In this document: positions 3,058-38,700 of the stretch, piece by piece
How the letters are laid out: each line of letters opens with the position of its first letter
Numbering within the stretch: the stretch's first letter is position 1
NCBI GenBank assembly: GCA_016792845.1
Contig: JAEUKH010000054.1
Location: 131,708 to 195,707, forward strand
DNA: 64,000 nt
Reading direction: 5' to 3'
From: Myxococcales bacterium
GTDB taxonomy: Bacteria > Myxococcota_A > Polyangia > Polyangiales > Ga0077539
Made by a program: the position numbers and the translations under genes
Notes under the pieces: model-generated
The model's input: only the letters and a program-made list of their open reading frames with translations
Databases searched by the model: none
What the model was told of the DNA's origin: nothing

Positions 3058-3197
3058 GGCGGCGGGAGGCTGCGTGCCGTCGGGTCTGCGCTTGACCGGG
3101 GGTGGTGCGGGCTCCTACGGTCGCCCCGGTCGCGCCTCCCATCGAGGCCACGCTGGCCTGTTGCGCAGGGTGGGGTGCGACTGAGCCAAACACCCCG

Positions 3198-5906: not shown

Positions 5907-6549
5907 CCCGCTCCGTCAGTGGATCGCCCGCCACGCGGCGCTCTCGGGGGCCCTCGCGATGCTGGCCGTGGCGAGCGTTCTGGCCCTGCTCCGGGGCGCG
6001 CCGTCGGGCGTGCTCTGGGTCGCCTTCGGCGCCCTCGCCGCGGCGGTGATGCTCTTCTGGGAGGCCCTGCGCCTCGTGCTCGACCCCAGCGCCTCGGGCG
6101 ACGACGGCGACGACGACCAGGAGGCCCGCAGCACCGCGGCCCTCGAAGCCCGCAAGCGCGCGGCCCTGAGGGCGATCAAAGACCTCCAGTTTGAGCGCTC
6201 CCTTGAGCGCATCACCGAAGAAGACTTCGAGGCCCTGTCGTCGAAGTATCGCGCCGAGGCTCGGGCCGCGATGGAGGCCCTCGACCTCAGCCTCGGCGCC
6301 TGGCGGGTGCGCGCCGAGGCGATGCTGAAGCAGGCCGAAGGTGACGGCCTCGACGCCCTCAGGGCCGAGGTCGCCGCGCGCCCGGGCGAGTCTGCCGCGC
6401 CTCCGACTGAGTCTGACTCAGTCAACGCCGCGGCGGCCCCGGTCGGGCAGCAGACGTGCCCGCAGTGCGCTGCGGCCAACGACGACGATGCGGTGTTCTG
6501 TAAGAAGTGTGCGGCGCGACTCGCGCCCGAGGCGCAGGCCGATGCGTAA
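5890..6549 (+). CDS. hypothetical membrane protein with coiled-coil and C-terminal zinc-ribbon
   Basis: ORF 5512-6549 trimmed to GTG at 5890, which overlaps the ccmF end by 17 nt. It has two TM helices (LSGALAMLAVASVLALL, VLWVAFGALAAAVMLFW) and a charged helical region. It ends in CPQCAAANDDDAVFCKKC. Confidence 0.6.
   Translation: MASTIDPLRQWIARHAALSGALAMLAVASVLALLRGAPSGVLWVAFGALAAAVMLFWEALRLVLDPSASGDDGDDDQEARSTAALEARKRAALRAIKDLQFERSLERITEEDFEALSSKYRAEARAAMEALDLSLGAWRVRAEAMLKQAEGDGLDALRAEVAARPGESAAPPTESDSVNAAAAPVGQQTCPQCAAANDDDAVFCKKCAARLAPEAQADA
6405..6423. repeat. palindrome family A, copy A1: GACTGAGTCTGACTCAGTC (9-bp arms)
   Basis: Read directly. Lies inside CDS 5890-6549 and is read as T-E-S-D-S-V. 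Confidence 0.9.
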
Positions 6550-7900
6550 CCGGGTCACGGTCTTGGTGTTGCTCTTGGGGCTCGGGGCGGGTCGCACCGC
6601 CGCGGCCCAACACGACGCCGCGAGCGCTCTCGGAGATGCCAGCGTCGAGGCCCCGCACCCGGGGCCCGTCGACCCGCACGCGGCGCTTCCGCCGGGGCAC
6701 CCGCCGACCGCGGCAGACCCGCACGCCGGGGCTGAGATTCAGCGCGCGGCGGTGCCTCAGACCTTCGCCGAGGAGGCTCCGGGGCTCGCGCCCGGGGTCG
6801 TGCTCGTGCGGGTGGTGAACGCCGCCGGAGACCCCCAACCCGAGGCACTGGTGCGCCTCGGCGCGATGCGCGACGGCGACCGTGACACGCCCCGCGAGGC
6901 GCGCACCGACAACAACGGCGTGGCGCGCTTCGAGGGCCTCGACCGGGGCTCGGGCATCGCGTACCGGGCCAGCACCGAGCGAGAGGGCGCGCGCTTTGGG
7001 GCCATGCCCTTTCAGCTCGGGGCCCGGTCAGGGTACCGGGTTCAGCTCGTGCGGCACGAGGTCGAGCACGGGGGGCGCGCGGTGCTCCTCTGGGATGCGC
7101 GGGTTGAGCTTCGCTTCAAAGACGATCGCATCGTGGTGGTGCATCGGTATCGCGTCGCCAACCTGTCGGGGCTCGCGCTGCCCGGAGACCCGCCGCACCC
7201 GACGGCCTATGTGCCGCAGCCGGGCCTGCGCTTCGGCCTCCCCGCGGGGTACACGGCCTTTCAAGCGGCCCCCTCGATGGACGACCTCCGCCTCAACGCG
7301 GAGGGCGACGTGGCCATCCTGCAAGGCAGCGTCGCGCCCACCGTCGATCAGCCCGTCGAGGTGACCTGGCAGTACCACGTGCCCATCCGCGGCGGAGACG
7401 TCTCGCTTGAGATGTCGCTGCCCCTCCCGCTGGTGAACGCCACCCTCGCGAGCGAGGCGCCGCGCGGGCTCAGCATGGAGGTCGAGGGCATGCCCGCCGC
7501 CGAGCGCCGGGTCTCTCAGGGCGAGAACATTCTCATCACCGGGGTGAACCGTCAGCCGAACGACCCCGCGGTGCGTTCGTTTCGCATTCACCTCCGGGGC
7601 ATCCCTGCGGCGGCGGGGCCTGAGCGCACGGTGGCCGCGGTGATCGCCGGGGCGCTGGTGCTCGGGGCGCTCGGGCTCGCGGTGCGGCGTCGCAAGGCGC
7701 CGGGCGGGGGCCGAGACCGGGCCGAGCTCGAAGCCGAGCGCGACCGCATCCTGGCCGAGATGCGCGCGCTGGTGGGGCTCCGCGAGACCGGCGAGGTGGG
7801 CCCTGAGACCTACGCCCGCCGTCGGCGCGAGCTGGCCCTGTGGCTCGCCGCGACCCTCCGCGCCCTCGACCCTGACGCCGCCCCGTCGCCCTCGGCGTGA
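6542..7900 (+). CDS. hypothetical secreted protein with a C-terminal TM anchor (carboxypeptidase-regulatory-like beta-sandwich region)
   Basis: ORF 6341-7900 trimmed to ATG at 6542, which overlaps the previous stop by 8 nt. Signal peptide MRNRVTVLVLLLGLGAGRTAAAQ. A VVLVRVVNAAGDPQPEALVRL...TDNNGVARFEGLD segment follows. TM helix AAVIAGALVLGALGLAV precedes RRRK. Confidence 0.65.
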   Translation: MRNRVTVLVLLLGLGAGRTAAAQHDAASALGDASVEAPHPGPVDPHAALPPGHPPTAADPHAGAEIQRAAVPQTFAEEAPGLAPGVVLVRVVNAAGDPQPEALVRLGAMRDGDRDTPREARTDNNGVARFEGLDRGSGIAYRASTEREGARFGAMPFQLGARSGYRVQLVRHEVEHGGRAVLLWDARVELRFKDDRIVVVHRYRVANLSGLALPGDPPHPTAYVPQPGLRFGLPAGYTAFQAAPSMDDLRLNAEGDVAILQGSVAPTVDQPVEVTWQYHVPIRGGDVSLEMSLPLPLVNATLASEAPRGLSMEVEGMPAAERRVSQGENILITGVNRQPNDPAVRSFRIHLRGIPAAAGPERTVAAVIAGALVLGALGLAVRRRKAPGGGRDRAELEAERDRILAEMRALVGLRETGEVGPETYARRRRELALWLAATLRALDPDAAPSPSA

Positions 7901-7950
7901 GGGCGATCGCGGGCACCCGAGACCCTGTCATCGTGCATCGAAGAGACTCC

Positions 7951-8604
7951 ATGCGTTACGCCCTCGCCTCACTCCTTCTGGTCACTCTGGGTTGTTCTCG
8001 CGGCACCGGGCCTGCGGCCTCTGGGGGCGGCGCCGTGCCAGAGGCGCCCTCGCCGGTGACCCCGCGGTCGGAGATCCCGAGTCAGACTCAGCTGCCGACC
8101 ACCACCGGCGCGGCGGCGCCCTCGTTGACCGTCGACAGCCCCGCCCGCGACGCGCTCTTGCCCGAAGGCGCGCCGGCGCCGAGCTTCGTGGGGGTGACCC
8201 ACACGGGCGTCACGGTGATGGCCAACGGCGGCCCGCGCGAGCGCGTCTTGGTGGTGTATTTCTACCCTCGCGACGAGACCCCGGGGTGCACCGCCGAGGC
8301 CTGCGCGTTTCGTGACGCCTTCGCGGGCTATGCCGACGCGGGGGCCGACCTCGTGGGGGTGAGCACCGACTCGGCCGAGGCGCATCGACAGTTCGCGTCG
8401 CACCATCGCTTGCCCTTCGGGCTCATCGCCGACCCCGAGGCGCGGCTCGCGCGGGCCTTCGGTCTCGCGGTCGAGCCGGGCGGCTTCACCCCGCGTACGA
8501 CCTTTGTGATCGGCCGCAGCGGGCGCGTGGCGAGGGTCTTCCCCGGGGTGCAGGTGACGGGGCACTCGGCCGAGGTGCTCGCCGCGGTGCGGGCCGCGCA
8601 CTGA
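7951..8604 (+). CDS. bcp: thiol peroxidase / peroxiredoxin Bcp, lipoprotein form
   Basis: ORF 7897-8604 with ATG at 7951. Lipobox MRYALASLLLVTLGC. Bcp core VLVVYFYPRDETPGCTAEACAFRD...GVSTDSAEAHRQFASHHRLPFGLIADP. Confidence 0.85.
   Translation: MRYALASLLLVTLGCSRGTGPAASGGGAVPEAPSPVTPRSEIPSQTQLPTTTGAAAPSLTVDSPARDALLPEGAPAPSFVGVTHTGVTVMANGGPRERVLVVYFYPRDETPGCTAEACAFRDAFAGYADAGADLVGVSTDSAEAHRQFASHHRLPFGLIADPEARLARAFGLAVEPGGFTPRTTFVIGRSGRVARVFPGVQVTGHSAEVLAAVRAAH
8077..8091. repeat. palindrome family A, copy A2 (reverse complement CTGAGTCTGACTCGG; core GAGTCAGACTC)
   Basis: Read directly. Lies in the linker of the bcp lipoprotein and is read as P-S-Q-T-Q. Confidence 0.8.
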
Positions 8605-8626
8605 GCGCCTTCACGGAGCGTGCGTC

Positions 8627-9484
8627 ATGGCGGGCATTGTTCGAACACCGCGGCGCCCTGAGGGGTGGGTCGCGCCGGGGCCGCGGCCGCGGGGTGCGAT
8701 GGGCGACCCGAGCCTCGCGCCCGCCGACGACGAAGACCTCTGCCTGCTCACGGGCGAGTGGCGCATTTTTCAGAAGCTCCGCGGCCACCGCTGGTCGATG
8801 GACGACCTCGTCACCGCATGGATCGCCCAGGCGAGCGTCGACCCCGGCGCGGTGAGGCGCACCCTCGACCTCGGCTGCGGCATCGGCTCGGTGCTTCTCA
8901 TGACGGCGTGGCGCTTCGCGGAGGCCCAGTGTGTGGGCATCGAGGCCCAAGACGTGAGCTTCGCGATGGCCGCACGGAGCGTCCGATACAACGGCGTCGA
9001 TGACAGGGTGCGGGTGCTTCACGGCGATTTTCGCGGGCCTGTGGGGCTCGACCCAAACCCTGGCTTTGACCTGGTGACGGGCACGCCGCCGTACTTTCCG
9101 CCGGGCACCGGGGTGGAGTCGGGCAAGGTCCAGTGCAGCCCGTGCCGCTTCGAGCACCGGGGCGGCATCGAAGACTACTGCGACGCCGCCGCGCGCTGCC
9201 TCGCCGAGACGGGCACCTTCGTCGTGTGCGGCGCCGCGGGCGAGCACCCGAGGGCCTTGGCCGGGTGCGACCGCGCGGGCCTGAAGCTCAGGGCCTTCTG
9301 GCGGGTGGTGCCCAAGGCCGGGGCGGCCCCGTTGGTGGGCGTCTGGGTCATCGACCGCCGCCACCGCGGGCCCCACGCCGAACACACCCTCACCGTGCGC
9401 GACCCGCACCAACAGTGGACGCCAGACTTCCTCGCGCTGAGGGCCGACATGGGGCTGCCGCCGCCGCTCCGGCGCCCCGGCTGA
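8627..9484 (+). CDS. class I SAM-dependent methyltransferase, TrmN6/YfiC-like (N6-adenine type motif IV)
   Basis: Contains WRIFQKLRGHRWSMDDLV, the SAM motif LDLGCGIGSVLLM and the catalytic-type motif DLVTGTPPYF. The start is uncertain (ATG 8627 or 8699). Confidence 0.8.
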   Translation: MAGIVRTPRRPEGWVAPGPRPRGAMGDPSLAPADDEDLCLLTGEWRIFQKLRGHRWSMDDLVTAWIAQASVDPGAVRRTLDLGCGIGSVLLMTAWRFAEAQCVGIEAQDVSFAMAARSVRYNGVDDRVRVLHGDFRGPVGLDPNPGFDLVTGTPPYFPPGTGVESGKVQCSPCRFEHRGGIEDYCDAAARCLAETGTFVVCGAAGEHPRALAGCDRAGLKLRAFWRVVPKAGAAPLVGVWVIDRRHRGPHAEHTLTVRDPHQQWTPDFLALRADMGLPPPLRRPG

Positions 9485-9495
9485 GTCTGACTCAA
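9481..9495. repeat. palindrome family A, copy A3: CTGAGTCTGACTCAA, with flank AGAATGT
   Basis: Read directly. Its TGA (9482-9484) is the stop codon of CDS 8627-9484. Confidence 0.9.
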
Positions 9496-9511
9496 GAATG
9501 TGACCGCGCGG

Positions 9512-9859
9512 CTACCGCAGCGCCGCACCGAGGAGGGCGAACCCCAACGCCACACCGCTCGCGAGCCCCGCCGCGCGCCGCGCCTCGGTGAGCGACCCCG
9601 CGCTCGCGGCGAGCACCAGCAGCGCGGCGGTCACCCGCGCCTCGGCCGCGGCGTCGCTCCACCGACCGCGCGCGAGGCTCGTCAGGTAGGCCGCGCGGCG
9701 GAGGTCGAGCTCCCAATCGAGGCGTGTGACCGCGGCGTGGGCCAAGAGCCCGAGGGCCGCGAGGGCCATCACCGCGGCGAGGGTGAGCGACGGCCCGCGG
9801 CGCCACGAGACGAGCCCCAAGACCGAGAGCGCCACCAGGGCGAGCCCCGCGGCGCTCAT
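9512..9859 (-). CDS. small hypothetical membrane protein (115 aa, about 4 TM helices)
   Basis: Inner part of ORF 9512-10114, from ATG at 9859: MSAAGLALVALSVLGLVSW. The start overlaps the upstream stop as ATGA. GC-rich third positions. Confidence 0.55.
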   Translation of the reverse strand: MSAAGLALVALSVLGLVSWRRGPSLTLAAVMALAALGLLAHAAVTRLDWELDLRRAAYLTSLARGRWSDAAAEARVTAALLVLAASAGSLTEARRAAGLASGVALGFALLGAALR

Positions 9860-10164
9860 CGCACCCACGCCATCGCCGCGAGCGTCGAGAGCGCCGAGAC
9901 GCCCACGCCCCACTCGAAGCAGCGGGCCAGGCGCTCGGGGTCGCGGCGGAGTCGCGCGATCGCCAAGGCGCCCAGAATGGCCGTGGCGTAGAGCGTCACC
10001 GTCACCCGGCCGACGAAGGGCGTGGCCTCGGTCGAGAGCACCGCCGTGGCGTCGGGCGCGGGGGCGCGCAGGTGCAGCCAGACCCGCGTCGCCGCGAAGA
10101 CCGCCGGGGCCCACGCGAACGACGCGCCCGCGACGGCGAGGGTGCGGCGGCCCCGAGGGCTCAC
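9856..10164 (-). CDS. small hypothetical membrane protein (102 aa, about 3 TM helices)
   Basis: ORF 9856-10197 trimmed to GTG at 10164, which overlaps the radical-SAM stop as GTGA. Hydrophobic segments LAVAGASFAWAPAVFAA, VTVTLYATAILGALAIA and GVGVSALSTLAAMAW. Confidence 0.55.
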   Translation of the reverse strand: MSPRGRRTLAVAGASFAWAPAVFAATRVWLHLRAPAPDATAVLSTEATPFVGRVTVTLYATAILGALAIARLRRDPERLARCFEWGVGVSALSTLAAMAWVR

Positions 10165-11288
10165 GCCCGACGCTCCCAGGCCATCACCCGCGGGCACTCG
10201 GGGTCGGGGCCCATGGCGCCGCGAAGATGGGTCGCGACGACCTTGCAGCCCCCGCGGCAGACGCGCTGAAACTCGCAGCCCGCGCAGGGCTCGGGGGGCG
10301 CGTCGGCGAAGGCCCGAAAGGCGTCGATGGACATTCTTGAGTCTGACTCAGTCACGAAGCTGCACCCCTTGAGGGCGCCCTCGCGGTCGACCGCGGCGAG
10401 GTAGCGCCCCGCCTCGCAGCCGAAGACGCCGAAGCGTTCGAGGCCCGCCGCAGACCCGAGGGCGCCCGCCACGAGGGGCACCAGCGCGCAGTCGATGCGG
10501 AGCGAGAGCCGACCCTCAAGGGCCGCGGCCAGAGGCTTGAGCGCGGCGCCGAGGGCCTCGGCCTGCGAGGGGGTGAGGCGTCGGGCGAGGTACTCGGGTG
10601 AGGCCGCGCGCCCGGCGGGCTTGTACCGAAGGAGCTGAAGCTCGCGCACCCCGAGGTCTGCGAGGCGGTGCGAGAAGGGCGCAACGGAGGCGACGTTCTG
10701 CCGGGTGAGCACCATGTTGACGCCCACCGTGATGCCCGCCGAGACGAGCATGGCGATGGCCTCGTCGGCTTGTCGGGCGCCCTCGAAGCCGCGCACGGCG
10801 AGGTAGTCTGCGGGGCTGCCGTCGTGGCTGACGTTGACCTGCGCGAAATCTCGGAGCGCTGCGGCGCGGCGCGGGGTGAGCCCCAACCCGCTGGTGGTGA
10901 CCACGGGGGTCATGCCGAGGGCGCGGGCGAGGGTGGCGAGGCTCCCGAGGTCGTCGCGGAGCATGGGCTCGCCGCCGCCGAAGGCCACGGTGAAGACCCC
11001 CGTGTCGCGGAGCCCGCGCAGGGTCGCTTCGAGGGCCTCGCGGTCGACGTGGCGCCCCTCGGGCGAGGCGCTCTGGTAGCAGCCCGTGCAGGCCGCGGGG
11101 CAGCGCGAGGTGACGGCGATGTGGGCTTCGAGGGGCGCCTCGGGCGGGGGAGGGTCGTCGCGCCAAGCCCCGGCGTCGTCGAGGCCCAAGCGCCGGGCGC
11201 GGTCGCGGTCGACGGCCACGAGGGTGTCGTCGCCCAAGCGCACCCAAGCGCCGAACGGGGCCGCGCGGAGGCGGAGCTCAGCCCGCAT
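10161..11288 (-). CDS. radical SAM / SPASM-domain enzyme (peptide- or protein-modifying maturase type)
   Basis: ORF 10161-11501 trimmed to ATG at 11288 (MRAELRLRAAPFGAWVRL). CX3CX2C cluster in VTSRCPAACTGCY, then GGGEP. C-terminal SPASM-like cysteines: GCEAGRYLAAVDREGALKGCSF...CAGCEFQRVCRGGCKVV...DPECP. Confidence 0.85.
   Translation of the reverse strand: MRAELRLRAAPFGAWVRLGDDTLVAVDRDRARRLGLDDAGAWRDDPPPPEAPLEAHIAVTSRCPAACTGCYQSASPEGRHVDREALEATLRGLRDTGVFTVAFGGGEPMLRDDLGSLATLARALGMTPVVTTSGLGLTPRRAAALRDFAQVNVSHDGSPADYLAVRGFEGARQADEAIAMLVSAGITVGVNMVLTRQNVASVAPFSHRLADLGVRELQLLRYKPAGRAASPEYLARRLTPSQAEALGAALKPLAAALEGRLSLRIDCALVPLVAGALGSAAGLERFGVFGCEAGRYLAAVDREGALKGCSFVTESDSRMSIDAFRAFADAPPEPCAGCEFQRVCRGGCKVVATHLRGAMGPDPECPRVMAWERRA
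10337..10351. repeat. palindrome family A, copy A4: TTGAGTCTGACTCAG, with flank ACATTCT on the left
   Basis: Read directly. Lies inside the radical-SAM CDS and is read as T-E-S-D-S-R. Confidence 0.9.
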
Positions 11289-11508
11289 CGTCGGCACCGG
11301 GCGAGGGAGTTTCTGAGTCAGACTCAGCAGGGTCGGGTTCGGGGAGAGGGGCGTCGGGGGAAGGGGCGGCCTCGTCGAGGGCGGCGTTGAGGGCCACCAG
11401 GAGCGCGGCGCCCGCGGTGGCCGAGAGGAAGAGCATCTCGACGGCGCTCCCGATCGAGGAGCAGTTGGCGCCGGGGCCGCGTCGGATGCGCAAGATGCCA
11501 TCGCTCAC
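11278..11508 (-). CDS. small hypothetical protein (76 aa): short N-terminus, one hydrophobic helix, acidic Pro-rich tail
   Basis: Inner part of ORF 11278-11712. GTG at 11508 overlaps the upstream stop as GTGA, with AGGAG 7 nt upstream. Sequence: (M)SDGILRIRRGPGANCSSIGSAVEMLFLSATAGAALLVALNAALDEAAPSPDAPLPEPDPAESDSETPSPGADDAG. The first ~50 codons have strongly GC-rich third positions. The end overlaps the radical-SAM start by 11 nt. An alternative ATG lies at 11436. Confidence 0.5.
   Translation of the reverse strand: MSDGILRIRRGPGANCSSIGSAVEMLFLSATAGAALLVALNAALDEAAPSPDAPLPEPDPAESDSETPSPGADDAG
11313..11327. repeat. palindrome family A, copy A5: CTGAGTCAGACTCAG (perfect 15-mer)
   Basis: Read directly. 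About 25 nt upstream of the radical-SAM ATG, inside the tail of the 76-aa ORF, read as A-E-S-D-S-E. Confidence 0.9.
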
Positions 11509-12596
11509 AGAGAGACTCCTTCGAGCATCTGGGGGTCGTGGAGGAACATCGCGAGGTAGGCTACCGCGAGCACGGCGAGGGCGCAGAAGGCCGCGCGGAG
11601 GGCCCTCGGCAAGAGCCCCGCGGTCTTGAGCGTCACCGCGGCGAGGTAGACCCCTATGGTGCCGAGGCCGAGGGTCAAAAAGGGCCACGGGTCGTGGTCG
11701 TCGGTGCGCCACGCGAGGAGCCCGCCGCCCGCCGTGAGGAGCCCCAGTTGGGCCAGCGGCGTGACCCGGGCGAGCTGGGCGACGAGCGACTTCTTGAGTC
11801 TGCCTCGAAAAATCTTCACCCCGGCCGCCGCGGCGCTGAGCGCGAGGGCGACGAGGAGGGCGACGCTCGCCCTGAGGAGGGCGCGTCGTCGGGCCAGCAC
11901 CCTGGCGTTGGCGCGCACGGCCTCGTCGACGTCGAGGCCCTCGACCTCGCGCGCGGCCTGGGTCTCGTCGCCGCTCCGCTGTCGTGCGGTGACCAGGCGG
12001 TCGGCGGCGAGGTCGCGGAGGTGCGGGGGCGTGGCGCCGTCACGGGCGAGGGCGAGGTAGACCCGCACGGCGTCGTCGGGGCGGGCGAGGCGTTCGAGGT
12101 AGGCCTCGGCGACGAGGTAGCGGGCTTCGGCGCGCACGCGCCCGGGGGCGAAGCGCGCGCTCTCGGCGTCGAGGCGCCGGATGGCGTCGAGGTCGCGGGC
12201 GAGGGCGGGGTCGCGGCGCACCCGTTCGAGGGCCCTGAGCGGGGCGAAATCGCCCTCGGCGTGGGCTTCGAGGTCTTCGATCCGGGCGATGGCCCGCGAG
12301 GCCCAACGGCTCGACGGGTCGAGGGCCACGAAGCGACGGTACCCGTCGAGGGCCGCGCCGAAGGCCATGGCCTCGTCGTCGGTGGCCGCGAGGAAGTACA
12401 CCCCGAGGTGCCGCAGGGCCGGGTCGGGGCGCCCGAGGAGCGCGCGAAAATGCTGCCGCGCGAGGTCGACCTGGCGGGCCTCAAGGGCGTCACGCCCCGC
12501 GCTGAGGCTCGGGTCTTGTTGGGCGAAGGCGAGGCCCGAGGCGAGGGCGAGGGAGATACTGAGTCTGACTCGAAAACCCGCGACCCGGCGACGCAT
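11505..12596 (-). CDS. hypothetical protein: signal peptide, TPR-like helical region, four C-terminal TM helices
   Basis: ORF 11505-12596. Signal peptide MRRRVAGFRVRLSISLALASGLAFAQQ. Helical repeats rich in A/L/R/D. C-terminal hydrophobic segments, e.g. VALLVALALSAAAAGV and AFCALAVLAVAYLAMFL. Confidence 0.7.
   Translation of the reverse strand: MRRRVAGFRVRLSISLALASGLAFAQQDPSLSAGRDALEARQVDLARQHFRALLGRPDPALRHLGVYFLAATDDEAMAFGAALDGYRRFVALDPSSRWASRAIARIEDLEAHAEGDFAPLRALERVRRDPALARDLDAIRRLDAESARFAPGRVRAEARYLVAEAYLERLARPDDAVRVYLALARDGATPPHLRDLAADRLVTARQRSGDETQAAREVEGLDVDEAVRANARVLARRRALLRASVALLVALALSAAAAGVKIFRGRLKKSLVAQLARVTPLAQLGLLTAGGGLLAWRTDDHDPWPFLTLGLGTIGVYLAAVTLKTAGLLPRALRAAFCALAVLAVAYLAMFLHDPQMLEGVSL
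11794..11808. repeat. palindrome family A, degenerate copy A6: TTGAGTCTGCCTCGA (11/15)
   Basis: Read directly. Lies inside CDS 11505-12596 and is read as R-G-R-L-K. It shares the flank CTCGAAAA with copy A7. Confidence 0.5.
12559..12573. repeat. palindrome family A, copy A7: CTGAGTCTGACTCGA (13/15)
   Basis: Read directly. About 20 nt downstream of the ATG of CDS 11505-12596 and read as R-V-R-L-S. Confidence 0.8.
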
Positions 12597-12610: not shown

Positions 12611-13729
12611 TCAGCTTCCGCGGGCGAAGCGCGCGGCCTCGGCGCCGGCGCGGTGACCGCTGGCGAGGGCGCCGGCGATGCCGTCACCGTCTCGGGCGAG
12701 GGCGACCTCGCCGGCCGCGAAGAGCCAAGGCGCGACCCGGGTCTGGCCGTCGGCGTCGAGCACCCGACCCGCGGCGTCGAGCCGCAGCCCCGCGCCGAAG
12801 GCCCGCCCTTCACGGGGCGCGAACCACTCGACCGGGTCGGCGCCCCGGGCCGCGCCGGTGGCCGAGAGGATGCGCTCGTGCCGCGCCGTCCATACGGGGA
12901 GGCCCGCGGTGCACTCTTCGAGGACCGAGGCGAAGCGCAGCCCGCCGCCCACGAGGCCGCCGGTGGCGAGCACCACGGCCCGCGCCCTGACGCTCTCGCC
13001 GTTGGCCAAGACCACCTTGGCGACGCGGCCCGGCTCGACCCGCGCCCGCGCGCTGAGCACGCCCACGTCGCGGGGCACCCAGGCCTGAAGGGCGGCCGCC
13101 ATGCGCAGCCCCGGAGGCTCGCCCGCGGCCCCCGCCACCTCGCCCACGGGTCGCCCCAAAAGCCGCTCAAGCTGCGCCGCCACATCGTGCCGCTTGAGCC
13201 CCAACACGGGCGGAAAGAGAAAGCCCCCGACGGTGTCGACGGCCTCTGCCAGCGAGGCCGCGAGGGTGGCCACGAGGCCTTCGGTGTCGAGCCGCATCGC
13301 CGCCGCGCCGAAGCCCGCCTCGCCCGCGTCGAAGCCGCAAGGCACCACTCGCCCCCCGAGGGTCTGCGCCAAGAGCCGCGGCTGCCAGGCCGGGTGCACC
13401 CCGAGGTCGACCACGCCCAAGGGCGCGCCCTCGCGCACCCGGTCAAGGTTGAGGAGCGACGAGAGGGCGCCCGCCACCCCCGACACCTGGAGCGCCCCTG
13501 CGGTCACGTAGCGCCCGCCGCGCTGCCACGGGCCCTCGGCCGACCAGCGGGCGAAGGGCTCTCGCGCCGCGCCCCAAAGCACCCCCGAGGCCATGGCCAG
13601 GGCGCCCTGAGACTCGGCCACGATGAGCGCGCTGGCGCCCGCCTCGTGGGCCGCCCGCGCGGCTGCGAGCCCCGCGGCCCCGCCGCCGATCACCACCACC
13701 TCGGCGTCGCGTCGTGGGGTGCTCATCAC
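12611..13729 (-). CDS. glpB: FAD-dependent oxidoreductase, anaerobic glycerol-3-phosphate dehydrogenase subunit B-like
   Basis: ORF 12611-13729. N-terminal dinucleotide fold EVVVIGGGAAGLAAARAAHEAGASALIV. C-terminal AAGEV...GIAGALASGHRAG. The start overlaps the glpA stop as ATGA. Confidence 0.7.
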   Translation of the reverse strand: MMSTPRRDAEVVVIGGGAAGLAAARAAHEAGASALIVAESQGALAMASGVLWGAAREPFARWSAEGPWQRGGRYVTAGALQVSGVAGALSSLLNLDRVREGAPLGVVDLGVHPAWQPRLLAQTLGGRVVPCGFDAGEAGFGAAAMRLDTEGLVATLAASLAEAVDTVGGFLFPPVLGLKRHDVAAQLERLLGRPVGEVAGAAGEPPGLRMAAALQAWVPRDVGVLSARARVEPGRVAKVVLANGESVRARAVVLATGGLVGGGLRFASVLEECTAGLPVWTARHERILSATGAARGADPVEWFAPREGRAFGAGLRLDAAGRVLDADGQTRVAPWLFAAGEVALARDGDGIAGALASGHRAGAEAARFARGS

Positions 13730-23115: not shown

Positions 23116-24287
23116 GGGCTCACCCTTCGTCGAAACGTTACGCGGTCTGAGAGCATGCTCGCCCCTTCGAGGATGGCGCCGACCGTCGGGTCGGTGTCGT
23201 TGAGAACCATGCGCCGCGCATAGGCCAGCGCGTAGGCGCCGACGATGGGCGCCTGCTCGGTGTCAGCGATGTTCTCACACCCGCCGAGGGCGAAGTACTG
23301 ATGGCAGCCACCTCGCACATCGATCCATGTCATGGGCATCGGCGCGGTGCTCTCGAACTGGGCCTCGGCCCCCACTGGGTCGTCGCCACCGCTCATCGCA
23401 AACATCGCAAAGCGAACCCCGCCGTGACCCGTCGGGCCGAGCCACTCGCGCCGCAGCGCGCCCGCCATCGCGAGCCCCGCCACCACCCGCTCGTCGCCCA
23501 CTCCGGCCGCAAACTGTGCGCGATCGAGGGCCGTACACGGGTTGGTCATGCACCGGGCCTCGACCGCCGCGGGGTCGAAGCGCGCGCCCCCGGCCGTCCA
23601 GACCGTGTGAACACCCGCCGAGTGGCCCGAGAGCAACACCCGGCTCACGTTGGCACGCCCCGACAGCGTCGCCGCGAGGGGCCCGTCGCGCAGCGCATCG
23701 AGGCTCGCGCTCACATCGCGCGCCCGAAGGTGAAAGATCGACGCGGGCAATGTTGACGGAGTGTCAGAGATCGTATTGCCGGTGTGATCGGGCGCCACCG
23801 CGACCCAGCCGTGGCTCGCAAAATACCGCATCAAGAAGTGACTCGTGGGGCCGAAGCCCTGGTGCCCGTGCGAGTACACATGCACCGGGTAGCCGTCGGG
23901 GTAGACCGGCACCTCTGACGGAGCGTCAACAATCGACTCGGGGTCCCTGAACAGCCGCCTGTAGGTTGGCCGCGGCCCCGACAGGGCCCGGGTGGGGTAC
24001 CAGAGGTGCAGGGTCAGGGTGCGCGGCGCGCTCGCGCCCGGGGGCGTGTAGCTGTGACTCACGCTGGTGTACCCGACGTTGAAGGGGCCCCGCGCGCGCA
24101 CCGACCACGACAGCGGCGCGCTCGGCAGCGGGCCCGCGTCGTCGGCGACGATGACCCGGTCGGCGCTCACCGCGTCGGCGCCCAAGGTGCCCGCGTCGTG
24201 CGCTGCGGGCGCTTCCGTACAGCCCGCGCAGGCCGCAGTCAGCAGCGTCGTCTCGACCACCCGTCGCAACATCGCCGCGATGATCAA
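23112..24287 (-). CDS. alpha/beta hydrolase (lipase / PAF-acetylhydrolase-like), probable lipoprotein
   Basis: ORF 23112-24287. N-terminal LLTAACAGC. VHVYSHGHQGFGP. Nucleophile elbow LLSGHSAGVHTV (GxSxG). Confidence 0.75.
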   Translation of the reverse strand: MIIAAMLRRVVETTLLTAACAGCTEAPAAHDAGTLGADAVSADRVIVADDAGPLPSAPLSWSVRARGPFNVGYTSVSHSYTPPGASAPRTLTLHLWYPTRALSGPRPTYRRLFRDPESIVDAPSEVPVYPDGYPVHVYSHGHQGFGPTSHFLMRYFASHGWVAVAPDHTGNTISDTPSTLPASIFHLRARDVSASLDALRDGPLAATLSGRANVSRVLLSGHSAGVHTVWTAGGARFDPAAVEARCMTNPCTALDRAQFAAGVGDERVVAGLAMAGALRREWLGPTGHGGVRFAMFAMSGGDDPVGAEAQFESTAPMPMTWIDVRGGCHQYFALGGCENIADTEQAPIVGAYALAYARRMVLNDTDPTVGAILEGASMLSDRVTFRRRVSP

Positions 24288-24342
24288 CGCCGCGAGGCGC
24301 TCTGGTCAACAGTGCGGCACACGCTGTGCTCAGTGCGGGCCC

Positions 24343-24876: not shown

Positions 24877-24970
24877 CGCCGTCTGCTCCAAAGCGATCAG
24901 GTCGAGAAAAAGTGAGGTTCTGATTCTGTTGCAACTCGATTGCAAATAGGCTAGTCGGCCCAACCGTACG

Positions 24971-27310: not shown

Positions 27311-27311
27311 C

Positions 27312-28124: not shown

Positions 28125-28179
28125 TCGACTGGTTACGTTACCAGGTCACCAGAACAACCCGAAAGAGTCAGGATTCACC

Positions 28180-29388
28180 ATGCAGAGACACGCACGGCTC
28201 GGCGCCACGGCGCTGGGGCTCATGGCATCGTTTTACCTTGTCGGTTGCGGCGATACGTCACCCTCGGCGGGCGACGCGGGGGCGAGCGACGGAGGCGCGA
28301 CGGTGCCCGCTGACGGCGCCCTCCCTGAGCGATTCAACACCCCGATGACGCCCGCGTTTGGTAGCATGACCAACGACCCCCGGGCGATCTTGGTGACGGT
28401 CTCGGGCGAGGCCGCGGCCACCGAGGGCTTCGCGTACTCGGCCACCCCCGCCGAGGGCGACCTGGTCTTCGTCGACGGCTGGCAGGTCAACATGACCCGG
28501 GTGCTCACCGTGATCGGCAACGTGCGCCTGAACCGCCTCGGCAACATGCCCAGCGACCCCTCGGTGGTCGGCGCCGCGGTGGCCGCTGACCCGCGCAGCT
28601 TCGCGGTCAACCTCACGCGCCCGGGGCCCATCGAGGGCGCAGGCGGCGAGGGCAGCGCGTGGCCCCTGGTGGCCTTTCGCAACGGCGTGAACGGGCTCAC
28701 CCTCGACCCCGCCCAACGCTACGCCTTCTCGTACGATGTCATCGCGGCCACGGCGGCCGCAGAGAACGTCAACCTCGACGCCGACGACGTCGCCCTCTAC
28801 CGCACGATGATCACCCGCGGCTGGAGCGTCTACGCCGAAGGAACCGCCACGTACCGAGGCCAGGCGCCCGAGGCCACCAGCGCCTTCGCGAGCTTCCCCA
28901 CGACGGTGCGCTGGCAGGTCGCGTACGGTGCGCCCGCGGCGTACCTCAACTGCAACAACCCCGACAACGGGGCCGAAGGGGCGCCGGGCGTCCAGCCGTC
29001 GGCCAACGGCGCGTACCGCGCGCAGATCACGTTTCACCTCGAACATTGGTTCTGGGGCGCGCTCCAGGTCGAAGACCCGCCGCTGCATTTTGACCCCTTC
29101 GCGGCGCGGGCCGCGGTGACCGGCGCCCAAGGCGAGGTCACCCTCGACGCCCTCCAAGGTGTGGTGCCCTCGAACCTCCAAGACCGCATGATGCGCCCCC
29201 TCGGCGACCGCGGCGGACAGACCCGCGGATACACCGTTCGCAACCCCGCCGCGCTCAGCTTTGACACCGGCGGTGTGTCATCGGTGCGCGACCTCCGCGA
29301 CTTCGTGGCCTTCTCGGGCCGGGCCAACGCGCACCTCAACGGCGAGGGCCTCTGTTTCGTGCGCCCAATGGGTGAGCTGCGATTTTGA
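28180..29388 (+). CDS. hypothetical lipoprotein
   Basis: ORF 28180-29388. Lipobox ALGLMASFYLVGCGD. Confidence 0.65.
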   Translation: MQRHARLGATALGLMASFYLVGCGDTSPSAGDAGASDGGATVPADGALPERFNTPMTPAFGSMTNDPRAILVTVSGEAAATEGFAYSATPAEGDLVFVDGWQVNMTRVLTVIGNVRLNRLGNMPSDPSVVGAAVAADPRSFAVNLTRPGPIEGAGGEGSAWPLVAFRNGVNGLTLDPAQRYAFSYDVIAATAAAENVNLDADDVALYRTMITRGWSVYAEGTATYRGQAPEATSAFASFPTTVRWQVAYGAPAAYLNCNNPDNGAEGAPGVQPSANGAYRAQITFHLEHWFWGALQVEDPPLHFDPFAARAAVTGAQGEVTLDALQGVVPSNLQDRMMRPLGDRGGQTRGYTVRNPAALSFDTGGVSSVRDLRDFVAFSGRANAHLNGEGLCFVRPMGELRF

Positions 29389-29399
29389 CACAGCGTCAA
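29385..29399. repeat. palindrome family B, copy B1: TTGACACAGCGTCAA (one arm mismatch), flank GAATGT
   Basis: Read directly. Its TGA (29386-29388) is the stop codon of CDS 28180-29388. Confidence 0.75.
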
Positions 29400-29543
29400 G
29401 AATGTCGCACGACGCGACCGGGGCGTTTTCTGACGGAGCGTTTGCCTGCGTAAAGCGCTGGTAGAATGGGGGCATCTGGGGTAGGTGCATCGGCCGCTGG
29501 CCGCGGATCGAAGACTTACCCCGTGGCAGGCAGAGTGTTGCCC

Positions 29544-31103: not shown

Positions 31104-31122
31104 GACCCCCCCTCCCTCGCAC

Positions 31123-31156
31123 GACCCCCAGCGGCCGCACCACGGCGTCGGGGGTC
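31123..31156 (+). terminator. possible stem-loop after the OmpA gene (GACCCCC ... GGGGGTC, 20-nt loop)
   Basis: A 7-bp GC stem read directly, followed by TCGCGTTTGG. The loop is long and the U-tract weak. Confidence 0.3.
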
Positions 31157-31182
31157 TCGCGTTTGGGCCTCGCGACCCGTTC

Positions 31183-31197
31183 TTGACACTCTGTCAA
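31183..31197. repeat. palindrome family B, copy B2: TTGACACTCTGTCAA
   Basis: Read directly. Intergenic, between the OmpA gene and the vWA lipoprotein gene. Confidence 0.9.
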
Positions 31198-31273
31198 ATC
31201 TCTCGCCGAGAGTTCACCGCGAAGTGCCCGGGCGATACCCACTTGTCACCGAGGGCTGTGCTAGAGACGGGTC

Positions 31274-32578: not shown

Positions 32579-32582
32579 AAGT

Positions 32583-32597
32583 TTGACAGCGTGTCAA
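32583..32597. repeat. palindrome family B, copy B3: TTGACAGCGTGTCAA (7-bp arms over 32582-32598)
   Basis: Read directly. Intergenic, 5 nt after the vWA gene stop and next to the terminator hairpin. Confidence 0.9.
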
Positions 32598-34760: not shown

Positions 34761-35753
34761 TCACACCCCCGGCGCCCGGGTCGATAGCACCCAGTCGGCC
34801 AAGGCACCGAAGCGCTCGCTCAAGAGCAAATGCCGCAAACGCCAGAGCGGCGAGTGCCACGCCGAGGGCGCGATCTTGCCGTCGAGCACCTCGAGCATCG
34901 CCTCTGCGGTCAGTGTTGACAGTGTGTCAAGAACCCTGGCCCCCCGCGCGGCGCTGGCGAGGCTCGGGTCGCCCGCGTAGGTCTCGCGCTCGAAATACCG
35001 GTACCGCAAGGGGAAGCTCCGCACGATCTCGAAGAAGGTCGGCCGCGGGCCGCGGTTGAGCGGCGCCTGGCCGTTTCGGGCGAGCTCATCTTCGAGCGAG
35101 CGCCGCGGCAAGGTGGCGTACTGCGCAGAGACCCAGTCGCCGAGCCCGTGCAAGAGCAAGCTGGTCTCGACGGCGCCGCCGTGGACGTCACCCAGCAAGG
35201 CGCGCACGTCGAGCCCCATGGGCTCGGCGAGGATGTGACTGGCGTCGCTCGAACCGCCCGTCAGGCGCCCGAGGAGCAGCGAGAACACCGGCACCATCTT
35301 CGCCCCCGGGCAGCGCCGCATGACCCGCGCGCAGGCCTCCTCGATGGCCACGATGTGCCGCGGGCCGCCGTGAAAATTGCTCACCCAGAGGGTGTCAAAG
35401 CCTTGCGTCGCGAGGCTCACCCCGAGGTCTTCGAGCATCCGGGTGATGGTCGAGGTGCGAAACCTGATCGAGCCGCGGTGCGGCAGCACATCGGCCGCGG
35501 CGTAGATCGCGGGCAGCTTCACGAAGCGAAGCCCGGGGCGCGCCTCGGCCACCCGCCGCGCCGCCGCGTCGAGGAGCATCTCAGCCTCGGCGATGTCGGC
35601 GATCACGGGCAGGTGCGGGCCGTGCACTTCGAGCGGCGAGCAGCTCACCAGCGCGACCGTGGGCTGCCCGCGGAGCCGCGCGAAATCAGCGCCGGTGAGG
35701 CGCCGCCAGTCAGAGATGGGGTCTTCGATCATCGCGGCCCGAGAGCCTACCAT
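34761..35753 (-). CDS. creatininase-family amidohydrolase
   Basis: VSCSPLEVHGPHLPVIADIAEAE and WVSNFHGGPRH match the creatininase-family metal-binding motifs. Start ATG 35753 or 35732. Confidence 0.8.
   Translation of the reverse strand: MVGSRAAMIEDPISDWRRLTGADFARLRGQPTVALVSCSPLEVHGPHLPVIADIAEAEMLLDAAARRVAEARPGLRFVKLPAIYAAADVLPHRGSIRFRTSTITRMLEDLGVSLATQGFDTLWVSNFHGGPRHIVAIEEACARVMRRCPGAKMVPVFSLLLGRLTGGSSDASHILAEPMGLDVRALLGDVHGGAVETSLLLHGLGDWVSAQYATLPRRSLEDELARNGQAPLNRGPRPTFFEIVRSFPLRYRYFERETYAGDPSLASAARGARVLDTLSTLTAEAMLEVLDGKIAPSAWHSPLWRLRHLLLSERFGALADWVLSTRAPGV
34916..34930. repeat. palindrome family B, copy B4: TTGACAGTGTGTCAA, flank GAAC
   Basis: Read directly. Lies inside the creatininase-family CDS and is read as L-D-T-L-S. 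Confidence 0.9.
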
Positions 35754-35779: not shown

Positions 35780-38700
35780 CTATTTGTGCTCGAGCTCTTC
35801 GACCCCGGTGAAGGGGCTCGGCGGCGCGTCGAGGTAGCGAGCCGTGCGGGCGCGACGGAGCGCGAACACCGGGTCATCGGCGAGCCGCGGGGCCAGCGCG
35901 TCGAAGGCCGCGAGGGCCTCGGCGAAGCGCCCCGCGCCGTGCAGGGCGAGGGCCGCGTGCCAGGCCGCCAAGGTGTCTGCCTTGGCCGCCCGCAGCGCCT
36001 CGGGGTCGGCGTCGAAGACCTCGTAGAGCGTCACCGGGGCCATGCGGCCGACGACCCTGACGCGGTCGACCTCGCGCAAACCGAAGCGCCCCGGAGGCAG
36101 CGCCGCGGCGGTCTGATCGCCGATCAAGAGCGCGACGTTGTAGTGCTTGGTGAGCGACTCGATGCGGGCCCCGAGGTTGACGCAGTCGCCGATCACGCCG
36201 CACTTGATGCGCTGCGGGCCGCCGATGGTGCCGAGGGTCAGCTCGCCCGTGTTGAGGCCGACGCCGATGGCGATGGGTCGTCGGCCCTCGGCCGCGCGAC
36301 GGGCGTTGAGCGCGCCGAGCCGCGCGAGCATGCCGACCCCGGCCACCACCGCGGCTTCGGGGGCGCCGTCGAAGAGGGCCATGATGGCGTCACCGATGTA
36401 ACTGTCGACGAAGCCGCCCTGGTCGAGGATGGCGGGCTCCATCGCGGCGAGGTAGTCGTTGATGAAGGCGATGTTCTCTTCAGGGGTCATGCCCTCGACG
36501 TGACGGGTGAAGCCTCGCATGTCGCTGAAGAGCACCGTCATGGTCTTCTGGACGCTGTCGCCGAGGGCCACCTCGTCGATGCTCTTGTGCCCGAGCGAGC
36601 GGATGAACTCCGCGGGCACGAAGCGCCGGTTGGCGTCGGTGAGCGCGATCTGGCGCCCGAGGGCGTCGCGGAGCTCGTCGTAGAGCCGCGCGTTCTCGAG
36701 CGACACCGCGGCCTGCGCCGCGAGCACCCGCACGAGCTCGACCCGCGCCGGCGGAAAGGCCCCCGGCACGCTGTCGTGCTCAAGGTAGAGCACCCCCGTC
36801 ACCGTGCCCTGATTCGACAAGGCCGTGCAGAGCACCGAGCGCACCCCCTGGGCCCTGACATACGCGTCGCCCACGTACGCGCCGTGCGTCGCCGCGTCGC
36901 TCAGCAGCACCGTCTCGCCCGTGCGCGCCACATACCGCAGCACGCTGCTCGGGAGGTTTGACACTGTGTCAAGATCGCGCGTCTCGCGCACGAAGCGCCC
37001 CCCGACGTGGCTCTCGGCCTCGACCCAGAGGGCCCCGTCGCGCAGCCTGAGGAGCGCCCCGCGCCGCGCCCCCGCGTTCTCGATCACGACGTCGAGCACG
37101 CGGTTGAGGAGCTGGTCGAGCACGATCTCGCCCGAGAGCGCCCGCGCGGCCTTGAGGGCCGACTCCAGGTCGAGCGCCTCGACCCGGGTGTTGGTGGTGG
37201 TGGTGGCTCCGGCGCTCGCGCTCACCGCCGCTGGGCCTTCGGGCCCGAGGGCGAACTCTGCGTCGAGGCGCCGCACCAAGGCGCCCGCGCCGTAGCGCTG
37301 GAGCGCGCCCCGGGCCTCGCGGGCCAGCGAGATGGCGAGGCCCTGACGGCCCATGCTGCGGTGCCACCGCGCGGCGCGGGTCAACACGATGGCCTCGTCG
37401 CCCGGCGTGGCGCCCTGCCGCGACGCGGCGACGGCGCGCTCAAAGTGCGAGAGGGCGTCGTTCGTGCGGCCCTCGACCCGGGCCAGCTCGGCGTCGAGGA
37501 GCGTCGCGCGGAGGCCGTAGCTCTGCGCGTTGCGGGCGCCCCAGGCGCGGTACCCCGAGACCCGCTGGCGGAGCTGAACGTGAGCCCGCGCGCGGCGCGC
37601 CAGGGGCCATGTTGACAGCGTGTCAAACATCGCCAGGAGGCCATAGAACCTCACCGCGGGGAGGTACACCTGTCCGGCGATGAGCGCCGCGTTGGCCTCG
37701 ACCTCGTCGTAGCTCTCGCAGGCCTCGGGGCCCATCGCGAAGAGGGCTCGGCGCATGATGCGCACGACGTTGGCGTTGGTGACGCCGTTGAGGTCGCCGG
37801 CGCCGCGGTACCGGGCCACCACGACCTCGTCGGCGGCCTCGGTGGCTTCGAGGGTGGCCTCTCCCTGGAGCGAGCGGAGGGTCAAGCGACCGAGGCCGAT
37901 GAGCTCAGAGGTCTTGGTCTGTCGAAGGTCTGACAGTGTGTCAAAGCTCTTGTCGAAGCGCGGCCCGAGCTCGGCGAGGGAGACCCCGCGGAAGAGGTCG
38001 ACGAGGTCGGCGCCCGAGAGGTTGTAGGCCCAGTACTCAAGGTTGCCGGTCTCGAGGGCCCGCCGCGCGGCGATTTGGTGGTCGGCGACGCAGTCTGCGA
38101 GGGGCGCCGTCCAGTGGCGGATGAAATACTGGAGAATGAACTCGATCTGGGGGCGCAGGGGCTCGTCTGCGAAGCGGTCGATGGTGCGCCGGGCGAGGTC
38201 GCCGAAGCGGAGCCCCGTCTCGACCTGGCCGAAGTGCGCCGTCACGATGAGCCCGTAGGCGATGTATCCGAAGGCCGAGAGCCCCGTCGCGCCGTGCGCC
38301 ACCGTGAGCTGAACCACCCGACACGCGAGGAGCGGGAAGAGGTTCGGCGACGCGAAGAACGCCGACGCCGCCGCCGAGCCGATGATCTTGAACGCGATCT
38401 TCAGCGACGCGTCGCGCAGCTCGGGGAGCTCGGCGAGGGCGTCCATCGAGCGAAACCCGAGGCTCACCCGGGTCGCCGCGAGGGCCCGCAGCACATGCCC
38501 CTGCCCGGGCTCAGCGGGGAAGCTCAGCCCCAACATCGCCAACGCCTCAAGGCTGAGCGCGATGGCGTCGACGTGGCGCCCGCGATGGTTCGCCGCGCGC
38601 ACCCGCACCTCGGCGATGCGCGCCCGCGACAAGGTGTCAGGCGCGACGCTCAGGGCCTCGCGCACCGACGCCTCGACGGCCTCGAAGTCGGTCGCCAGGT

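Follow-up and report, generated by a model that had tools for sequence, protein, structure and literature searches.

What keeps a 15-bp palindrome almost unchanged at six positions within 6.2 kb of a bacterial chromosome, five of them in coding DNA? The question is raised by a 64,000-nucleotide stretch from a Myxococcales bacterium (GenBank assembly GCA_016792845.1, contig JAEUKH010000054.1, 276 kb long, forward-strand positions 131,708 to 195,707), hereafter the window. A first-pass annotation, made from the letters alone, had listed seven copies of the palindrome, CTGAGTCWGACTCAG, between 6405 and 12573, had argued that the DNA word, not a protein motif, was under selection, and had linked the word to CcrM/HinfI-type methylation at GANTC. 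All positions given below are window coordinates, and "local" and "confined" are judged at the 64-kb scale. Genes were mapped using frame analysis based on the G+C content of third codon positions (GC3), the Pfam and NCBIfam collections, and gene calls on same-species contigs; the family scans covered approximately 50 genes.

Two arrays of palindromes on a common frame

Chance expectations for words were obtained from dinucleotide-preserving shuffles of the window (n = 100 for CTGAGTCWGACTCAG). With up to 2 mismatches, CTGAGTCWGACTCAG matched at 6 positions (6407, 8077, 9481, 10337, 11313, and 12559) against 0.10 expected, and none of the 100 shuffles gave as many; a tolerance of 3 mismatches added no further match, and the remaining 58 kb of the window contained no copy. 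The 13-mer TGAGTCWGACTCA, reported earlier as exact in 4 copies, was indeed found 4 times (0.00 expected), and the 11-mer core GAGTCWGACTC is exact in all 6 main copies. Allowing 1 mismatch in the core raised the count to 7 by adding 11794; because 1.22 such matches are expected, 11794 taken alone could be due to chance. All 7 copies listed by the first-pass annotation occur where it placed them and with the sequences it gave, and its statement that their recurrence exceeds chance and is local within the window stands, with P ~3.5e-5 for 6 random points falling within 6.2 kb of 64 kb. The G+C content is 70% to 77% across the whole region of this first array (array 1). Its midpoint (9490) coincides with the convergence of 2 operons (9484/9512), where the copy at 9481 is located, and no copy is found at the upstream end of either operon.

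A search for repeated palindromes, performed de novo, revealed a second word, TTGACA-N3-TGTCAA, 5 times at 31183-37612. In the form TGAC-N5-GTCA, mostly TTGACA-N3-TGTCAA, it occurs 10 times at 23754-38786 (0.65 expected) and nowhere else in the window, and TTGA-N7-TCAA occurs 7 times (0.12 expected). Ten random points would fall within 15 kb with P ~2.5e-5. Array 2 is separated from array 1 by 17 kb, or by 11 kb when its 2 outlying copies are counted, and lies among unrelated genes, which include those for a TonB-dependent receptor, an OmpA-like protein, a secreted 434-aa protein (p434), a double-zinc-ribbon protein, a creatininase-family protein, and a 1754-aa kinase-AAA-TPR-GAF-cyclase.

Both arrays were compared with same-species DNA, consisting of 11 contigs from at least 9 sequencing runs (7 Logan contigs for array 1 and 4 more for array 2), all of which terminate within the window. 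The organism is present in the sequencing runs SRR29844862-875, SRR12425353/364, ERR15459719, and SRR10555725. Every array 1 copy spanned by the 7 Logan contigs, which derive from separate sequencing runs and are 99.6% to 100% identical to the window, is unchanged, and since these contigs were assembled independently, the array is not an assembly artefact; with the 4 contigs covering array 2, an assembly or adapter origin is ruled out. Copies of both arrays are unchanged in strains of 99.3% to 99.6% identity, except for one non-conserved spacer base. This base, at the centre of the copy at 32583, is altered in a strain of 99.3% identity; it is the sole change in any covered site and lies within an 88-nt intergenic region that contains 9 single-nucleotide polymorphisms, including this one.

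The 2 words share the frame YTGA-N7-TCAR, with 17 occurrences in the window where shuffles predict 1.44. In 1.34 Mb of related Polyangiales DNA, comprising 80 loci of a radical SAM/SPASM gene (rSAM) that carries one of the array 1 copies, 6 p434 loci, and 4 creatininase-family loci, the frame occurs at 0.38 per 64 kb and never twice in a locus; the rSAM loci account for 1.19 Mb of this dataset and were taken from GTDB species (Polyangiales, Polyangium, Labilithrix, and Chondromyces). In both arrays, the positions immediately outside the palindrome are enriched in A/T, and both avoid primary promoters and concentrate in the distal halves of operons, toward their converging ends, with one copy at each convergence point. 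Certain flanks are also common to several copies. The sequence ACATTC precedes TTGA at 9481, 10337, and 29385 (window 9492-9501, 10331-10340, and 29396-29405), and these flanks are 3 of the only 8 ACATTC occurrences on both strands of the window; GGGCGAGGGAG-N3 stands on one side of the copies at 11313 and 12559. Two possible origins of such flanks are copying from site to site and a recognition sequence that extends beyond the palindrome but is only weakly conserved.

Selection on the DNA word and its lineage distribution

To separate the DNA word from the encoded peptide, we relied on a codon-aware null, in which synonymous codons were shuffled with protein sequences and codon usage held fixed (n = 500). 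The array 1 core is present 5 times in coding DNA against 0.32 expected, with a maximum of 2 in any shuffle. Third codon positions in the window are approximately 90% G+C, and every intragenic copy ranks in the lowest 0.2% to 3.5% of the window's six-codon windows for codon preference, being spelled with codons such as TCT and TCA (6% each of Ser codons), ACT (2.6%), AGT (1.7%), AGA (1.0%), CGA (6.9%), and ACA; the intragenic copies of array 2 likewise fall in rare codons. Array 1 copies are read on both strands. Two phases carry the word directly; in the third, its TGA either ends a gene or is replaced by CGA. The readings proposed by the first-pass annotation hold throughout (TESDSV, TESDSR, AESDSE, PSQTQ, the TGA stop of a methyltransferase gene, and CGA for TGA in both copies within the p363 gene). 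In array 2, all intragenic copies are in a single phase, read as D-x-x-S; the other phase would require a cysteine.

The copies occupy positions that tolerate change. The rSAM loop carrying copy 4 is variable and no longer than in the closest orthologues, with no insertion or deletion, and the other array 1 copies are found in the variable acidic tail of p76, within the first dozen codons of p363, in a zinc-ribbon linker, and in the region preceding a peroxiredoxin domain. The creatininase-family copy aligns column for column with 14 orthologues reading (L/F/I)-(D/E)-x-(L/F)-(T/A/S), and the gap-free alignment implies that this site was made by substitution inside an existing helix. Insertions of the type produced by mobile palindromic elements, whether repetitive extragenic palindromic sequences and bacterial interspersed mosaic elements (REP/BIME), Rickettsia palindromic elements, or miniature inverted-repeat transposable elements (MITEs), were found in neither the rSAM nor the creatininase-family gene, and the gap-free alignments of both rule out an insertion, a footprint, or a mobile element. 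The sites arose by substitution, not insertion, at tolerant positions. Rare codons, the excess over synonymous shuffles, the use of several phases on both strands, and placement in variable regions free of indels together show that selection acts on the DNA word and not on the peptide, which bears out the earlier proposal; dinucleotide shuffles, the synonymous-codon null, and the rare-codon analysis rule out chance and a protein motif alike. Sustained selection is implied by the many codon-level substitutions, running against a strong GC3 bias, that approximately 16 sites required.

Beyond the species itself, the arrays were not encountered. In a collection of 5.8 billion proteins, the rSAM protein has no relative above 65% identity, its own species excepted. 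No copy of CTGAGTCWGACTCAG with up to 2 mismatches is present in the 80 orthologous rSAM loci, neither array word occurs in the 1.34 Mb of related DNA (protein identity up to 68%), and no A/T-containing palindrome is repeated 3 or more times in the rSAM, p434, or creatininase-family loci, including 2 loci of the closest metagenome-assembled genome (MAG). The first-pass annotation had suggested asking whether orthologous genes in close relatives lack the word. They do, in all 80 loci; however, these relatives share only 47% to 65% protein identity, so that the absence indicates lineage specificity rather than lack of function, and within the species all copies are kept. With no word or array in the related loci, the arrays are thus a recent, lineage-specific feature superimposed on pre-existing genes.

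Smaller repeats do occur in the relatives. Five pairs of repeated A/T-containing palindromes, never in 3 or more copies, occur in the 1.19 Mb of rSAM loci; these include pairs of GTTGCA-NN-TGCAAC approximately 1.48 kb apart, at apparently orthologous positions, in 2 related MAG loci (L065, 17527/19019; L076, 17024/18496). A Polyangium fumosum locus (L063) carries 4 TTGGGG-N3-CCCCAA palindromes at 5205-5378, with spacings of 43, 86, and 44 nt, a small tandem-like repeat.

Wider collections gave the same picture for the word itself. The exact 15-mer occurs 69 times in viral contigs, always singly and at the level of chance, and in at least 120 stretches of metagenomes, where the matches listed include only singletons or low-complexity (acidic) coding repeats. 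In the literature, the exact words appear only incidentally, in unrelated eukaryotic papers, and none is described as a bacterial binding site; searches on the names of the patterns returned only one LysR example (GcdR). The PexR site of Myxococcus differs from the words.

The copies and the genes around array 1 are collected in Table 1. The minus-strand operon contains a trio, p363-p76-rSAM, which is kept in 53 to 56 of the 80 related loci, in none of which the plus-strand operon adjoins it. In the closest relatives, too, the trio is preceded by GlpA-like and GlpB-like genes. The copy at 12559 is near the start of p363, as had been noted, but p363 is not the first gene of its operon, since the GlpA-like and GlpB-like genes precede it; similarly, the copy at 11313 does lie approximately 25 nt upstream of the radical SAM start, and it is in addition inside the 3' end of the conserved p76 gene. 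p76 has an invariant motif, RRGPGANCSSIGS, and a transmembrane helix. No Pfam or NCBIfam family covers p363 or p76, and the trio looks like an uncharacterised rSAM maturation system. At the far end of the window, an intergenic block at 63318-63790 consists of tandem 7/14-nt repeats (GTCGCCC/GTCGCGT, ~25 units), flanked by 3 copies of a 36-nt module with the hairpin GGGCAGGCACAAGGCCTGCCC; same-species assemblies break at this block.

Table 1. Palindrome copies of the 2 arrays and genes of the operons around array 1 (window coordinates).
Feature	Position	Sequence	Gene or location	Remarks
Array 1 copy 1	6405..6423	GACTGAGTCTGACTCAGTC	Linker preceding the zinc ribbon of the 219-aa protein (5890-6549)	Perfect 19-nt palindrome; 15-mer starts at 6407; read TESDSV; 121 nt upstream of the 452-aa gene start (6542)
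Array 1 copy 2	8077..8091	CCGAGTCAGACTCAG	AhpC/TSA-PrxQ-like gene (7951-8604), N-terminal region before the catalytic (peroxiredoxin) domain	1 mismatch; read PSQTQ
Array 1 copy 3	9481..9495	CTGAGTCTGACTCAA	Meeting point of the + and - operons (- strand gene ends 9512)	TGA is the stop codon of the methyltransferase gene (8627-9484); array midpoint
Array 1 copy 4	10337..10351	TTGAGTCTGACTCAG	Variable loop of the radical SAM/SPASM gene (10161-11288, - strand)	Read TESDSR
Array 1 copy 5	11313..11327	CTGAGTCAGACTCAG	Variable acidic tail of p76 (11278-11508, - strand), within its 3' end	Perfect; read AESDSE; 25 nt upstream of the radical SAM ATG
Array 1 weak candidate	11794..11808	TTGAGTCTGCCTCGA	Inside p363	4 mismatches, 1 in core; read FRGRLK
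Array 1 copy 6	12559..12573	CTGAGTCTGACTCGA	Codons 8-12 of p363 (11505-12596, - strand)	2 mismatches, core exact; read FRVRLS
Array 2 outlying copy	23753..23767	TTGACGGAGTGTCAG	Esterase-like gene (23112-24287, - strand)	Read SDTPST
Array 2 outlying copy	23915..23929	CTGACGGAGCGTCAA	Esterase-like gene (23112-24287)	Read VDAPSE
Array 2 copy	29385..29399	TTGACACAGCGTCAA	End of gene ending 29388	TGA is the stop codon; ~55 nt upstream of an OmpA-like frame
Array 2 copy	31183..31197	TTGACACTCTGTCAA	Intergenic	77 nt upstream of the p434 start (31274)
Array 2 copy	32583..32597	TTGACAGCGTGTCAA	Second convergence point	4 nt past the p434 stop codon
Array 2 copy	34916..34930	TTGACAGTGTGTCAA	Creatininase-family gene (34761-35753, - strand)	Read LDTLST; 109 nt upstream of the double-zinc-ribbon gene; no indels versus orthologues
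Array 2 copy	36958..36972	TTGACACTGTGTCAA	1754-aa kinase-AAA-TPR-GAF-cyclase gene	Read LDTVSN
Array 2 copy	37612..37626	TTGACAGCGTGTCAA	1754-aa kinase-AAA-TPR-GAF-cyclase gene	Read FDTLST
Array 2 copy	37930..37944	CTGACAGTGTGTCAA	1754-aa kinase-AAA-TPR-GAF-cyclase gene	Read FDTLSD
Array 2 copy	38773..38787	TTGACACCAAGTCAA	1754-aa kinase-AAA-TPR-GAF-cyclase gene	Read LDLVST
CcmF/CcmH fusion	3102-5906		+ operon	
Membrane protein with C-terminal zinc ribbon	5890-6549		+ operon	219 aa
452-aa protein	6542-7900		+ operon	
AhpC/TSA-PrxQ-like protein	7951-8604		+ operon	
Methyltransferase	8627-9484		+ operon	Small-molecule or RNA-type
Convergence of the + and - operons	9484..9512			Array 1 centred here
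Two small membrane proteins	9856-10164 and 9512-9859		- operon	
Radical SAM/SPASM (rSAM)	10161-11288		- operon	
p76	11278-11508		- operon	Conserved 76-aa gene
p363	11505-12596		- operon	363-aa membrane/TPR-like protein
GlpB-like	12611-13726		- operon	
GlpA-like	13726-15378		- operon	

Candidate functions of the arrays

Symmetric protein dimers that bind double-stranded DNA classically recognise dyads of this kind, 15 bp long and nearly perfect. As RNA, the copies fold weakly: their hairpins reach only about -3.4 to -6.3 kcal/mol for the hairpin alone, folding is mostly no better than in shuffles, and scans of the window returned no Rfam match and no tRNA. The weakness of the RNA hairpins points to double-stranded DNA as the functional form. 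Sites are spaced at approximately 1 per kb in tolerant coding positions, and the main promoters are skipped; this distribution suggests that regional density matters rather than promoter geometry, in which case the protein most likely acts regionally. We infer from these features that the sites bind a protein, that it is dimeric, and that it acts on the region, and we favor, tentatively and at somewhat short of an even chance, a reading in which a symmetric dimeric DNA-binding protein loads or nucleates at the clustered copies and acts on 2 converging operon ends. The putative binder would be encoded outside the window. Its sites would have entered tolerant gene positions by point substitution, at approximately 1 per kb over a 6-kb segment centred on convergent operons, with site density across the region, not a fixed distance to a promoter, as the selected property. 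Having loaded or nucleated at the palindromes, the protein would spread, slide, or form bridges from one site to the next, giving rise to a nucleoprotein domain that would control or organise both operon ends. A paralogous protein would serve array 2, with its different palindrome on the same YTGA-N7-TCAR frame.

Several observations weigh against this reading. No candidate binding protein was detected by Pfam and NCBIfam among the approximately 50 genes in the 64 kb: ParA, ParB, DnaA, TetR, and LysR families were all absent, as were conjugation, integrase, and ParB-like genes (the context is chromosomal), and the sole regulator found is an HTH_3-cupin protein at 56001-56819. The array word is unlike canonical parS, TGTTNCACGTGNAACA, which is missing from the window (one match with 3 mismatches, 0.70 expected), cumulative GC skew shows no turning point, and the presence of 2 different arrays 17 kb apart argues against a centromere role. 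Six of the 17 sites lie within approximately 200 nt upstream of a start, compared with about 3 expected, which keeps ordinary operator function in play. Because the related loci lack both words and arrays, conservation across species lends no support, and the local character of the arrays has been established at the scale of 64 kb.

Each array holds one gene for a membrane-anchored zinc-ribbon protein, at 5890-6549 and 33464-34807, the latter with 4 N-terminal ribbons, a long coiled coil, and a C-terminal anchor. As a binder encoded in cis, this pair was rejected: the 2 proteins are not detectably related to each other and have no relatives in the PDB. Given the lack of significant similarity, their co-occurrence may be a coincidence.

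The main rival, to which we assign a clearly smaller though still appreciable share of the probability, is an ordinary local regulon, in which a TetR-, XRE-, or LysR-type dimeric factor encoded elsewhere binds each site independently, the sites serving as internal-promoter operators or elongation roadblocks with no spreading, similar to mycobacteriophage "stoperators" or intragenic cre sites. Palindromes of 15 bp with a central base pair are typical of operators for helix-turn-helix dimers, and the copies do have the dyad symmetry of 13-19 bp that operators display. Some are also close to starts, namely those at 11313 (-25, rSAM), 31183 (-77, p434), 34916 (-109, zinc-ribbon gene), 6407 (-121, 452-aa gene), 10337 (-173, 102-aa gene), and 29385 (~-55, OmpA-like frame), and the pattern TGA-N7-TCA matches the LysR-type T-N11-A pattern reported for GcdR (PMC6667623). 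However, copies are missing from the main promoters of all 4 operon arms, no gene for a regulator adjoins them, and at least 9 copies are deep within genes, 4 of them in a single 5.3-kb gene. No promoter or terminator was predicted at any copy, no sigma-70-like promoter near those of array 1, and the TTGACA of array 2 has, by inspection, no -10 partner. The near-invariance of the 11-nt core in 6 copies is, in our judgement, also tighter than is usual for regulons.

A more novel reading is that the arrays act as locus-specific addresses. Paralogous binders would each recognise their own 15-bp palindrome on the YTGA-N7-TCAR frame, placed at approximately 1 per kb in their own 6-15 kb segment centred on converging operons. 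Each array would give rise to its own nucleoprotein domain, which could silence or activate the region, insulate convergence zones, or position envelope-protein loci. We regard this as rather unlikely; to our knowledge, no multi-array, multi-specificity system of this kind has been described for a bacterial chromosome.

It is improbable that the arrays are a mutational or selfish by-product with no host function, generated by short-patch copying from one nearby site to another, local transposon footprints, or a miniature mobile palindrome. The common flanks described above could be a trace of such a process, and several copies yield the same peptides (ESDS; DT(L/V)S). Yet neither the rSAM nor the creatininase-family gene contains an insertion relative to its orthologues, reading frames and family-typical residues are preserved, with the TGA phase repaired to CGA, flanking homology able to drive gene conversion is absent, and there is no transposase or element end nearby; 2 distinct words, each in its own segment, would be hard to obtain from one process. 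DNA uptake sequences (DUS/USS), which are non-palindromic, strand-biased, and spread at approximately 1 per kb over the genome, were considered and rejected, the words being palindromic and present at approximately 1 per kb only inside each array, with each word confined to one segment.

The link to methylation made by the first-pass annotation is not supported. It would make the copies an epigenetic or restriction signal, with the paired, inverted GANTC words of each array 1 copy as targets of a CcrM/HinfI-type methyltransferase and the locus regulated by its methylation state, which we consider very improbable. Against dinucleotide shuffles, GANTC appears 2.4-fold depleted in the window (107 versus 260 expected), but in the 42.5 kb of coding DNA its frequency fits the synonymous-codon null (59 observed versus 65.9, z = -1.05), so that codon structure accounts for the depletion. 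Pfam and NCBIfam revealed no DNA methyltransferase family in the window; the methyltransferase at 8627-9484 is TrmN/HemK-like and far below family cut-offs, and another is RlmI-like. Array 2 has the same architecture and contains no GANTC at all. The GANTC case shows that motif statistics need care where a genome is rich in G+C at third codon positions; in the same coding DNA, GTNAC is mildly over-represented (130 versus 114, z = 3.2).

Equally remote is a role as sites of recombination or DNA structure (shufflon or inverton crossover, cruciform, or RNA hairpin), for which the sites are suitably palindromic and their central W could set polarity, since the 11 same-species contigs are fully collinear with the window and reveal neither inversions nor deletions at the copies, either event would destroy conserved host genes, arms around a single central base are unlike known crossover cores, and the RNA hairpins are weak.

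Comparison with known systems

Among the closest known architectures is that of chromosomal parS/ParB, whose sites form multi-copy, largely intragenic clusters near parAB in Myxococcus, Caulobacter, and Corynebacterium. Like these clusters, the arrays consist of several near-identical palindromes at roughly kilobase spacing (5-30 kb overall for parS), with intragenic copies tolerated (5 of the 6 copies of array 1, within 6.2 kb, are in coding DNA) and with a function that would depend on the cluster. Unlike them, the array 1 word is unrelated to TGTTNCACGTGNAACA and has an odd length of 15 bp rather than 16 bp, the window contains neither parAB nor origin genes and holds 2 different arrays, and, in contrast to the nearly universal parS, the arrays are missing from relatives. 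The stoperators of cluster A mycobacteriophages (L5 and Bxb1) likewise consist of a single short word, repeated many times across a group of genes that is silenced as a whole; in contrast to the palindromes described here, they are asymmetric, oriented with transcription, intergenic, and phage-borne.

Operators of the LysR type, as in GcdR with its T-N11-A pattern (PMC6667623), and of the TetR type resemble the copies in the outer frame TGA-N7-TCA and in the 15-bp dyad with a central base pair. They occur once or twice in a promoter beside the regulator gene, however, whereas the copies occur 6 to 10 times across 6-15 kb of coding DNA, with no regulator adjacent and no copy at the upstream ends of the operons. 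SegB sites of Sulfolobales are mostly intragenic, clustered, imperfect palindromes that have been read as serving chromosome organisation rather than promoter control (bioRxiv 10.1101/2025.02.07.637068), and they share with the arrays a predominantly intragenic position and a dense local cluster; SegB is, however, an archaeal ribbon-helix-helix protein, and its sites cluster around the segAB genes and are also found genome-wide.

The logic proposed here, distant action on several operons from few loading sites, is that of KorB (plasmid RK2) and BisD. The bisS sites of BisD on ICEclc, GAGCTATCCCCnGGGGATAGCTC, are intragenic, odd-length palindromic loading sites of a ParB-like regulator (PMC12409273), and the 15-bp dyads with their central W are likewise palindromic, mostly intragenic, and odd in length, the central base being free. 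KorB and BisD sites differ in belonging to mobile elements and in lying beside a ParB-like gene, whereas the arrays are located among core chromosomal genes (cytochrome c maturation and the rSAM trio) with no ParB-like gene in 64 kb, and their copy number per kb is higher.

The architecture is of a known kind, clustered palindromic protein-binding sites, but departs in its defining features from parS, KorB/BisD, promoter operators, and mobile palindromes, and we can match no described system to a core chromosomal region that holds 2 arrays whose words differ but share a frame. Clustered, gene-embedded palindromes mark bacterial centromeres (parS) and, as shown more recently, the loading zones of sliding-clamp regulators (KorB and BisD); the 64 kb of core chromosome described here contain this architecture twice, with no partner gene nearby and no counterpart in relatives. 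Should the copies prove to be ordinary operators, they would still provide an unusually clean natural case of binding sites evolving within coding sequence, and the 15-mers offer a sequence handle on an uncultured Polyangiales lineage. If instead a protein family stands behind the arrays, region-wide, site-nucleated DNA-protein domains would be used well beyond the chromosome segregation and mobile elements to which parS, KorB, and BisD belong.

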